This document shows, one piece after another, positions 9,001-12,000 of a DNA stretch of 39,504 nt (its first letter is position 1; every line of letters begins with the position of its first letter). Source of the stretch: a plasmid; sequence record NZ_CP098652.1. One strand, written 5' to 3'. The position numbers are program-made.

Positions 9001-12000
9001 TCTGTTATGGTATGTGAATCCTCAATAACAGGTTCTCTATTTGGTTCTACATGATATGAATATCCTTTCATACTTAATACTAAATCAACAAAAGCGTTAG
9101 TATACCAATCATCTGAATATTCATCTTGTTGTGTGAAATCATCAATATCATTAATATCACTGTCAAAATAGGTAATTTCTTCTGACTTAATGGCATTTAC
9201 TAGCTTTTCATAACCTTTATTTGCTGTATCTTTAGTAAAATATTCATCTAAATTAGTTAAGTTATAATCAAATTCATAATCATCTATACTCATAATATGT
9301 GGTGTTTGATATTTTTCGTTAGAATCTTCTAAATCATAAACTGGTTGAGTATACACTTCGTTATAGAAATTATTTCTATAGACTAAATTACCTACTATGT
9401 TTTTATTAGTCATATCTCTTTGTTCGTTCATTTGTTTATCACTTGCTGGTACATAATAAAATTCAGAATTTAGTTCATAATCGGTGTTGTTCAAAATTCC
9501 TCGGGGTGTAAACCTCATTATTAAATCACTCCTTTTTGTTTAATAAAAACCTAATGTAAATATAACCTCCATATAGTAATTATACCATTTATGACGTGTC
9601 ATTTCATGTCGTGTCATAATAAATAAAAAGAAAAAAAGGCCTTTTTACAGGCCTTATAAATCTAAATCAATATCTTTATTCTTTTCGTTCTCTATATCAT
9701 AATTCAAAAAGTCTTTTACATGCTTTTCTGGTTCTTTTTTGATAGTTAGCGCAGACAAAGTAAAATGTTTGTTATTTTTCTCAACTTCTAAGTAAGGATT
9801 ATCAATATCATTAAAATTAATTTTAGCTGGGTAGTCTGTTAGGCTTTTAAACTCATACAGAGTTTCATAATCATCTAGCAAATCTAACTTTTCATTAGGC
9901 AGAGAAGATTGTAATTTATTATATCTATTTGATCTTCCATTAGATATTAATTCATTAATAGCATTTTTAGTTTGTTGATTATCAATACTATCTTGAATAT
10001 TCAATTCTTTGTGGAAGTATTGCATAGTTGAATATTTAACTAATGGTATCTTACTTAAACTAGCTTTTGCTTTTATGTAATCTTTAGACATAATATCGTA
10101 TTTTTGTTCAATATCTGGTGCTTGTTGCTTTAAAAAATTATTAACATTTTGTGGTATTTTGGCTTTTGATCTGTTATTAAGGTATTCATTATTACTAATT
10201 ACTATAGACTTTGTTAAATCAATAGCTGAATTGGGTTTATCGGGCTGTTCGCCTCCTAAATCAACTTTATATTTATTAGGTATTTTTTGTGCATTTGTTC
10301 TAAAAGGTATACAAACTCTATTATTATTTCGTTTGAAAGAATAATAATATGGTCTTGAACCATTTTTATTGCTTGATATTTCGTTTCCTCGTAATTTATT
10401 AAATAGGTTTTGATTTAAACGAACAACTTCCATTGTTATTCACTCCATAAATTTAATAAAAAAGAGGCGTAATATACGCCTCCTTAAAACAATATAATTT
10501 GTTTGATCTCTATAGTTGTTTCTTTCCGTGCAGTATTAATTTTTATATCTGCGCCACAACGCCGATTCTAGTTCGTGTAGTATTAATTTTTATATCTGCG
10601 CCACAACGCCGATTCTAGTTCGTGCAGTATTAATTTTTATATCTGCGCCACAACGCCGATTCTTTTCTTACTTATATTATAACAATACCTGTCATGTTGT
10701 GCAATGTTTTAAAATGATAATTTAGATAGGCTTGAAAGCTTGCTAACAAACTCCTCATACTTAATAGCTGTCTCATCTATTGTTGTTAATCTTCTATTCA
10801 ATGGTTCATGTAAGTAAGATTTATTTAATAAAAAACCAAGCAAAGTAAGATTTCTTCTTAATCTAGGAGATTCAGCAACATCAAAAGCATAAACAAGTTG
10901 CTCTTTTAAATTTGTATAACTATTATTTTCTATAAAATTAATGAAACGATTAATTATTGCAATCACACAATCACACAATTGTATTGTCCTATGTTCGTGA
11001 GATTTATACCAATGTATATTTGAATTAGAGAAGGATTTAATTTTTTCTTTAATGTGCATTTCTTCATCAAAACTATGTTTACTATGTATTAGTATTTTAG
11101 AATTAATTGTATATAAAGCAGAGAAATCTTTAATATAGATATGAGATTCTTCTCCACTAAAAAGATTATCTTTAATCACAGTATTAGTAAATAAATCAAT
11201 TAACACCTTTGTATATTCATTCTGATTACTTTGTTTTGATAGGTATTGTGCAAACTCTGTATAGAAGTCATTAAGCTCTTTCTGTTCTACTAAATTAGGG
11301 AAATTATATTTTTTAAATAATTTTTCCAACCATGGTATATCGTTTTTTACTTTCAAATATAGTTCTTGCTTTAATAATTGAGGGTTATATATACGTTTAA
11401 TAGAATTATTTTTGCTATTATCATAAGAATTATCTACTATATCAACAATAGTAAGCCATAACAAATTTAAATAATTAAAATGTAAATTATATCCTTTAAT
11501 TTTAATATATTCCAATATCAATTCTATGTTTTTAGTATCAATAGACTCCAAAAAATCATCAGATTTCTTAAAAATATATTTGGATTTTAGTTCTGGAATG
11601 TTACTATTTATTTTTAATTTGTTCCATAATTCATTATGGTTATCATTTATTATTTCTTTTTCACTAACTAAACCACCTAATGAAAATTTTTGAAAGGGAT
11701 TAACATTAAAGGAATCGTTTTTCAACCTAAACATTCTTGAATTATTTGTTTCATCATAATAATAAAATTCACGTCTATCCATATTTTTATATTCATAGTA
11801 TTCTTTAATTAAATCTCTCAATTTACTATCCACAATATTTTTCCTCCTTTAACTTTTGTATTCTCTTAATATTCTATAGACAGTATCTCTGCTAACATTT
11901 ACCTTTTCAGCAATTTCTTGCCCTGTATAATCTTTGGTATCGTATAAATGTTTAATGTAATCTTTTTTTTCTTGTGGCATTGCTTTTCTGCCCCCCATGT

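Follow-up and report, generated by a model that had tools for sequence, protein, structure and literature searches.

A candidate tenpIN-family type III toxin-antitoxin module in the backbone of pSK41-family staphylococcal plasmids, and toxin-less relatives of its antitoxin RNA

A stretch of a Staphylococcus capitis plasmid (sequence record NZ_CP098652.1; 39,504 nucleotides [nt], here called the window, whose coordinates are used throughout) carries on its minus strand, in this order, a near-consensus promoter, three 47-nt tandem units, an intrinsic terminator, an open reading frame (ORF) of 259 amino acids (aa), and a second terminator. We think it likely, at a probability of about 85%, that this locus is a type III (RNA-antitoxin) toxin-antitoxin (TA) module of the tenpIN family, that it belongs to the backbone of pSK41-family plasmids, and that it works by the mechanism proposed below. 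The evidence lies in the layout, the homology, fold, and conserved residues of the protein, an architecture conserved down to 25% protein identity, and covariation in the RNA. An initial annotation of this DNA had put the promoter, 47-nt repeats, terminator, and ORF with a Shine-Dalgarno sequence on the minus strand, and all of them are where it had placed them; its call of a type III TA or abortive-infection-type locus agrees with layout, homology, and fold alike.

The locus is a tenpIN already present in catalogues, to which it brings nothing new. The tenpIN family was defined by Blower et al. (2012), who reported loci on conjugative multiresistance plasmids of Staphylococcus aureus, listing pVRSA and naming pGO1 and pSK41, and the longest TenpN toxin in their family table has 259 aa. 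Schuster and Bertram (2016) described the 259-residue TenpN of VRSAp, pSK41, and pGO1 together with a three-repeat TenpI, and stressed that nothing had been tested in S. aureus. Nadig et al. (2025) modelled the 259-residue S. aureus TenpN, with a "structured C-terminal extension," and proposed a tenpI pseudoknot with an A-rich stretch. The initial impression that such a locus had not been described for pSK41-family plasmids therefore does not hold, as it had appeared in the 2012 and 2016 papers. The gene itself had rightly been called unannotated, its RefSeq name being only "hypothetical protein."

The features of the locus are collected in Table 1. A consensus promoter scan scored the tenpIN site at 10 of 12, one base out of register. 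Promoter-like sites were not above chance in the region overall (7 seen, 9.8 expected), so what speaks for the promoter is how good the site is, where it lies, and that it is conserved in the relatives examined; a promoter is kept upstream of the array in four of them (L002, L004, L011, and L020). The homology block common to pSK41-family plasmids stops at about position 10709, just upstream of the −35 element. The terminator scan found 2 terminator-like sites in 1.6 kb, compared with 0.4 expected. The terminator lying between array and toxin gene has the same position in every relative examined while its sequence varies, and it is presumed to be a leaky attenuator that sets the ratio of RNA to toxin. 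Tandem Repeats Finder (TRF) placed the array at 10527-10663 (period 47, 2.9 copies, 97% matches, score 267) as the top-scoring tandem repeat of the whole window. When units are counted in register with the RNA structure, the array has three complete ones, and the single mismatch between units that had been noticed before is a G/A difference in unit 2. At 47 nt and 2.9 copies, tenpI falls inside the range of the TenpIN family, which is 39 to 57 nt and 1.9 to 3.0 copies (Blower et al. 2012).

TABLE 1 Coordinates of the tenpIN locus, the oriT region of the window, and toxin-less TenpI-like units on other plasmids
Feature	Coordinates	Strand	Remarks
tenpIN promoter	10676-10704	-	−35 TTGCAC 10704-10699, 17-nt spacer, TG-extended −10 TATAAT 10681-10676; read from sequence
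tenpI antitoxin RNA array	10523-10663	-	Three 47-nt units from 10661, 10614, and 10567
Intrinsic terminator, interval between array and toxin gene	10455-10485	-	GC-rich stem GGAGGCGTA/TACGCCTC(T) at 10485-10461, then T run
Shine-Dalgarno sequence GGAGTG	10441-10446	-	7 nt ahead of ATG; GGAG 10446-10443; read from sequence
ORF tenpN	9654-10433	-	259 codons, ATG start
tenpN toxin core	9993-10433	-	Codons 1-147; putative endoribonuclease of ToxN/AbiQ/CptN fold
tenpN C-terminal extension	9654-9992	-	Codons 148-259 and stop; helical and beta domain (predicted)
Closing terminator of tenpIN unit	9636-9655	-	Terminator scan
pSK41-type oriT core ATAAGTGCGCCCTTACGGGATTTAAC	2970-2995	-	About 100 nt upstream of MobA/MobL (nes) gene
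nes promoter TTGACA-17-TATAAT	~2940-2968	+	Reads through oriT core into nes
Toxin-less TenpI-like units, pRIVM1295-2	L027 2503-2760	+	
Toxin-less TenpI-like units, 2.5-kb plasmid	L028 1103-1460	+	
Toxin-less TenpI-like units, pLNU3	L029 ~1390-1630 (plus-strand coordinates)	-	
Toxin-less TenpI-like units, pKH18	L030 3300 wrapping to ~110	+	

The toxin was assigned to its family by the NCBIfam TenpIN model NF047358, which matched residues 6 to 144 over profile positions 1 to 141 of 141 (E value 1.5e-16, 60.9 bits). The family is thus TenpIN, in place of the ToxIN/AbiQ/CptIN type first supposed. Close homologs were limited to staphylococci, and neither phmmer nor a profile of these close homologs matched any Protein Data Bank (PDB) sequence. 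A profile search of 1.8 billion representatives recovered 94 relatives, mostly of 145 to 200 aa and matching query residues 1 to 150 only; remote relatives recovered by the family profile (P0109, P0031, and P0034) pass the TenpIN cutoff. When a 45-sequence family profile was searched against PDB sequences, the best matches were ToxN (4ATO, E value 0.0015) and CptN (4RMO, E value 0.018, a weak match over the N-terminal ~55 residues only), with an alignment that passes through the RPY and I-P-x-R-S/T motifs. The resemblance of the RPY...IPFRTN segment to the ToxN core, suspected from the start, is borne out here by its alignment to RPY...VPLTS of ToxN. The Pfam family PF13958 (ToxN_toxin) was weakly matched by 4 of the 45 family relatives (best E value 1e-4); TenpN and the ToxN_toxin family have the same fold but are different sequence families.

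An AlphaFold model built from the 45-sequence alignment reached a mean predicted local distance difference test score (pLDDT) of 92 and a predicted template modeling score of 0.85. By this model the TenpN core has the ToxN/AbiQ/CptN endoribonuclease fold, at 11 to 16% sequence identity to ToxN and AbiQ, which is the outcome of the comparison with those three structures that had been proposed as a check. It superseded a first AlphaFold2 model made from 11 close homologs, in which the toxin half had a pLDDT of 50 to 75 and gave weak Foldseek matches to MazF/Kid with E values above 0.1. Near-invariant columns of the family are matched by R27, Y29, P43, R45, T46 (an S/T column), D72, and K75, and by an STxQYFHxEL motif. 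Six of these residues (R27, Y29, P43, R45, D72, and K75) agree with the published TenpN signature R, Y, P, R, H, G, D, K (Nadig et al. 2025). The near-invariant residues and the type III architecture are under clear purifying selection. One record of the family (P0006; 218 aa, 54 member sequences) begins at TenpN residue 42 and so is without R27 and Y29; it could be a gene-calling artifact, or a frameshifted and possibly detoxified allele circulating in S. aureus.

Covariation of the repeat supports its folding as an H-type pseudoknot. In the proposed structure each unit has a 3-bp stem S1 (GCG/CGC in the window) and a stem S2 (UGUGG/CUGCA or CUACA) formed by five of the six bases of the S1 loop with a 3′ pentamer, across a third loop that is an A-rich stretch of 17 nt in the window and of 16 to 20 nt across units. 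S1 occurs as GCG/CGC, GUG/CAC, and ACG/CGU, with a fourth variant, GCC/GGC, in two more distant lineages; S2 occurs as UGUGG/CUGCA, UGUAG/CUACA, UGCAG/CUGCA, and CGUGG/CCACG, with a fifth, CUCGG/UCGAG, in a more distant lineage. Over 17 distinct units all 136 of 136 cells are paired (15 of them as G:U), and four of the eight pairs are changed on both sides; this score was reached by none of 500 shuffles, and slid registers paired at most 61% of cells. The model had been proposed from the window unit and divergent units, and the units of small plasmids described below, which supplied most of the compensatory changes, were seen only afterwards. Covariation scores can be inflated by related sequences, a concern that is reduced here since the compensating units are of independent origin. 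The covariance and pseudoknot analysis advised by the initial annotation thus returned a covariation-backed pseudoknot. A simple hairpin enclosing the A-rich stretch (GCAG/CUGC) was rejected, being 82% paired and no better than shuffles. Rfam models searched over the locus gave only chance-level matches besides a weak RefA1 lead, and no ToxI-type match.

The architecture is kept in relatives. In eight of them, with 34 to 93% protein identity, the promoter, an array of 45- to 49-nt units in 1.9 to 3.9 copies, the terminator, and the ORF are all present; relatives examined include Staphylococcus saprophyticus, a Macrococcus armenti plasmid, several S. aureus plasmid contigs, and the Staphylococcus delphini chromosome. 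More distant relatives, at 25 to 37% identity, have arrays of 47- to 53-nt units upstream of the toxin. Roughly 170 plasmid records, pLW043 and the Mu50 plasmid among them, match window block 9401-10709 at ~97% identity, and tblastn found the toxin in 159 plasmid records, pSK41 (NC_005024) included. A natural experiment is offered by a contig of Staphylococcus cornubiensis NW1 (L009 1390-2284), where a ~90% identical chromosomal copy of tenpN lies downstream of a serine-protease-like gene. Its terminator is present, its promoter and repeats are gone, and the reading frame is shifted after codon ~24, whereas the S. delphini chromosomal copy keeps its repeats and has an intact ORF. Judged from sequence, the S. 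cornubiensis copy is a pseudogene at a site where the antitoxin is missing, which favors the TA reading; the frameshift of this repeat-less copy seems not to have been noted previously.

Two observations concern how such loci appear in assemblies. The IMG/VR contig UViG_2939201121_000002 (78.8 kb) contains two tenpIN loci, one (L011) a long-form copy with 93% identity and a two-unit array seen by eye but not by TRF, the other (L013) a 37%-identical match over residues 1 to 124 only with a different array of 1.9 copies of a 47-nt unit. The Logan short-read contigs L003 and L005 to L008 end 110 to 130 nt upstream of the tenpN start, just past the last unit, probably because the assembly breaks at the tandem array; short-read assemblies would then under-report tenpI.

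In the mechanism that we propose, a strong constitutive promoter would transcribe the three tenpI units, with most transcripts ending at the intrinsic terminator and a minority continuing into tenpN, so that the RNA would be in excess. TenpN, as a ToxN-fold endoribonuclease, would cut the precursor RNA at the variable linkers that separate the units; every unit would fold into its H-type pseudoknot (3-bp S1, 5-bp S2, A-rich third loop) and remain on TenpN in a closed, inactive ribonucleoprotein. Should transcription of the locus end with plasmid loss, or be shut off during phage infection, the labile RNA would decay, and freed TenpN could cleave cellular or phage RNAs and arrest or kill the cell. 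The outcome might be plasmid addiction, abortive infection, or both. The RNase activity, processing, complex formation, toxicity, and trigger in this scheme are inferred from ToxIN, CptIN, and TenpIN of Photorhabdus luminescens.

The closest characterized system is that of P. luminescens TT01, which shares with the staphylococcal locus the hidden Markov model (HMM) family and the order of promoter, tandem repeats, terminator, and toxin. That TenpIN is toxic, is neutralized by its repeats, and aborts phage infection in Escherichia coli (Blower et al. 2012), properties that are only predicted for the staphylococcal locus; the P. luminescens toxin has 143 aa rather than 259 aa with an added C-terminal domain, and the staphylococcal module has a Gram-positive host and lies on the backbone of a conjugative multiresistance plasmid. 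ToxIN of Pectobacterium atrosepticum, Bacillus thuringiensis, and E. coli and AbiQ of Lactococcus differ further, with toxins at 11 to 16% identity to a protein that the Pfam ToxN_toxin model does not match, and ToxI repeats, with a mean of 38 nt in the 2012 survey, are shorter than tenpI here. CptIN of Eubacterium rectale is linked to the locus only weakly, at the profile level, and all cptIN loci in the 2012 survey were chromosomal.

The RNA is more widely distributed than the toxin. A blastn query of promoter, array, and terminator matched 272 plasmid records, 114 of them non-mobilizable; TenpN was found by tblastn in only the 159 records mentioned above, 5 of them non-mobilizable. Toxin-less TenpI-like units downstream of a mimic of the pSK41-type origin of transfer (oriT) are present on about 110 to 120 staphylococcal plasmids that are small or non-conjugative. 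Small rolling-circle plasmids (2.5 to 3.3 kb) have one to four such units and no toxin ORF, with a terminator after the units, and one of these units is identical to the window 47-mer at 47 of 47 positions. In these small plasmids the units lie 92 to 95 nt downstream, on the same strand, of a 26-nt sequence that is the exact oriT core upstream of nes in the window. Over five plasmids the distance from core to units is 92 to 205 nt, again on one strand, and the core is preceded, where this was checked, by a nes-type promoter: a near-consensus TTTACA-17-TATAAT lies ahead of it in pRIVM1295-2, the 2.5-kb plasmid, and pN315, the three that were scanned or read upstream. A reading of the sequence as a pWBG749-type oriT was wrong, and the idea that its region forms an RNA "leader" was dropped since it is present in more than 1,100 plasmids. 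Mimics of the pSK41-type oriT on non-conjugative plasmids are known, and the review describing them mentions no RNA or toxin; the fusion of toxin-less TenpI-like units downstream of such a mimic seems to be a new observation.

These units lead to RefA1 (Rfam RF02842), a family annotated without a function and known as a stand-alone small RNA (sRNA) from RNA sequencing on pTEF1 of Enterococcus faecalis (Innocenti et al. 2015). The RefA1 model matched the small-plasmid TenpI arrays with an E value of about 5e-7 (33 to 44 bits), and a bona fide RefA1 (262 bits) is found on pN315 (NC_003140.1 ~3800-4020; L032 1836-2058), where it consists of a promoter, the oriT-mimic core, hairpins, one TenpI-like pseudoknot unit 205 nt downstream of that core, and a terminator. 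The 3′ unit of RefA1 has the design of a TenpI unit, with an S1 of CGACG/CGUCG, a loop UACGG whose pairing partner CCGUA lies downstream, beyond an A-rich stretch, and fully compensated stems, and it occurs in 843 plasmid records, mostly staphylococcal plasmids of 20 to 30 kb. RefA1 differs from tenpI in that it has no adjacent toxin gene in pN315 and starts with the pSK41-type oriT mimic.

We tentatively suggest, at somewhat less than even odds, that the toxin-less TenpI-like units, and more distantly RefA1, are orphan type III antitoxins, with which plasmids that get a ride from pSK41-family conjugation would bring along the antidote of their helper; the RefA1 unit is divergent and may have no cognate relation to TenpN. 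As orphan antitoxins, the units would protect the host from TenpN upon loss of the helper or would disarm TenpIN-based exclusion or abortive infection, and the RefA1 sRNA family would acquire a function. In phage pseudo-ToxI mimicry and in chromosomal anti-addiction antitoxins, too, an antitoxin-only copy sits on a replicon other than the TA carrier, and the toxin-less arrays look alike; here, however, the carriers are small or mobilizable plasmids and the antitoxin copy is joined to a sequence that mimics the oriT of the TA carrier itself. The same data bear on a different reading, in which the RNA made from the repeats serves first of all as a RefA1-type plasmid sRNA that acts in trans on its own targets, its place upstream of tenpN being secondary. 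Copies that lack the toxin but have a promoter and terminator of their own are indeed frequent, they match the expressed stand-alone RefA1 of pTEF1, and the RNA is far better conserved than the toxin. However, the window array scores only 17.5 bits on the RefA1 model, well under the gathering score of 94, the linkage of repeat, terminator, and toxin holds in every toxin-bearing relative, and orphan antitoxins would account equally well for the toxin-less copies. We therefore regard a primary role as a trans-acting sRNA as very unlikely.

The toxin of the window shows mosaic evolution. Short-form TenpNs stop at about residue 147, and residues 148 to 259 are predicted to form a separately folded domain (pLDDT 95 to 97 over residues ~150 to 240) that is restricted to the Staphylococcus/Macrococcus long-form clade. 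Searched alone, this extension matched no Pfam family (only a non-significant Cas6_N match, E value 0.057) and had no convincing structural neighbor, with none among the BFVD viral structures. The length of 259 aa had been taken as a possible sign of a new or extended family; the extra ~110 aa are instead this clade-specific extension, which Nadig et al. (2025) had already described. Identities of toxin core and extension are discordant among the relatives compared (P0011, 88% and 31%, respectively; P0008, 65% and 81%; P0106 and P0107 were also compared), which implies recombination between core and extension.

Several points weigh against a functional tenpIN module. At 60.9 bits, TenpN falls under the 90-bit NCBIfam equivalog cutoff, as do the other long-form relatives tested (P0014, P0016, and P0107, 58 to 80 bits); this marks a divergent subfamily and explains the RefSeq label. 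Scans of the 259-aa protein with Pfam (including PF13958 at E values up to 1) and PADLOC gave no match. Nadig et al. (2025) count a His located five residues past R45 among the absolutely conserved residues of TenpN; this position is Lys here, varies within the staphylococcal clade, and is His in only 20 of the 45 aligned sequences. The family residue G70 is Ala in the window TenpN, and the ~110-aa C-terminal domain could alter how the protein works. The repeat-less pseudogene is one instance only, and no experimental paper on a staphylococcal tenpIN was found in the literature searched. Finally, a 39-nt core of the RNA is 97% identical where toxin cores are only 55 to 65% identical, and since toxin-less tenpI copies are also common, the RNA may be under a constraint besides binding TenpN.

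Some of this would suit a domesticated or decayed TenpIN, in which TenpN has ceased to arrest growth and, by means of its C-terminal domain, specifically processes or regulates plasmid RNAs, the repeats being either what it acts on or what controls it. The confidently folded C-terminal domain is absent from the short forms of ~145 to 200 aa, including those that pass the TenpIN cutoff, and the Lys at the His position, the low HMM score, the 218-aa record with its 54 member sequences, and the tight linkage of the module to transfer and stability genes all point the same way. We nevertheless consider decay or domestication unlikely, because the other near-invariant residues and the type III layout are under the purifying selection described above, the sole repeat-less copy is a pseudogene, and the 218-aa record may be a mere gene-calling or frameshift variant.

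It may also be asked whether the 47-nt repeats act as DNA, as a res site, iterons, or a single-strand origin, with the ORF unrelated to them. The module lies directly downstream of the serine-resolvase gene res in pSK41-family plasmids and in all long-form relatives, with exceptions where res is truncated, absent, or separated from it, and the units of small plasmids adjoin an oriT mimic. This conserved placement beside res fits a stability cassette. A very low likelihood is all that we would grant to a DNA-level role, for the array has a promoter and terminator of its own, and it is still present in loci whose res is truncated or missing (the S. delphini chromosome and L011) and where another gene parts the module from res, as in this window. 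The repeat sequence changes along with the toxin in distant relatives, and the direct 47-nt repeats are unlike res sites, which lie upstream of the resolvase gene. The 15 G:U cells of the pseudoknot would be C-A mismatches on the opposite strand, so that the structure belongs to the transcribed strand. Small-plasmid units are transcribed opposite to rep, an orientation that, from what is generally known of rolling-circle replication, argues against a role in displaced single-stranded DNA.

The tenpIN reading matters chiefly for its carriers. In staphylococci, plasmids of the pSK41/pGO1 family rank among the main conjugative carriers of resistance to aminoglycosides, mupirocin, vancomycin (pLW043), and other drugs, and a working addiction or abortive-infection module in their backbone would help explain plasmid persistence and would affect phage therapy. 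Experiments can be designed directly from the comparative results, which provide a defined pseudoknot, compensatory variants of it that occur in nature, and a natural pseudogene. The results also suggest, as an idea that can be tested, that a mobilizable plasmid brings with it the antitoxin of its helper beside a mimic of that helper's oriT.

The gene that parts the module from res in the window (10709-11833, minus strand) encodes a 374-aa DUF3800 protein that PADLOC matches to the candidate defense family PDC-S51 (E value 3e-64). As an insertion between res and tenpIN it was seen in only two plasmid records, both of S. capitis; the res gene of pLW043 directly adjoins the module. No paper mentioning PDC-S51 was found in the literature searched. 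The initial annotation had seen a defense corner beside ArdC, a view that holds in part: the module belongs to the pSK41-family backbone directly downstream of res, and the candidate defense gene beside it is an insertion in this S. capitis plasmid. The window is identical to S. capitis pTZ44 (NZ_CP098658.1) over the tenpIN locus; over 100-21200 the two are out of register (4473 mismatches position by position), and the window has no cfr at 17209-18255, its annotated position in pTZ44.

Other repeats and one further RNA were noted in the window. Between the tenpN terminator and a 538-aa ORF, at 9586-9617, a 15-nt direct repeat CATTTATGACGTGT in 2.2 copies overlaps promoter-like sites of both strands and may be an operator. 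Identical (CATGT)x3 runs occur in three intergenic regions (2247-2261, 26449-26463, and 38129-38143); we would guess that they could be sites for a plasmid regulator such as ArtA. The sole curated Rfam match in the window is ncr1575, a Bacillus sRNA family, at 20237-20454 on the plus strand (110.7 bits against a gathering score of 60). At 39010-39096, a 23-nt tandem repeat GTGTCCTTTTGACATTTCTAGAC in 3.8 copies (score 139), with 15-nt and 9-nt repeats just upstream, looks iteron-like.

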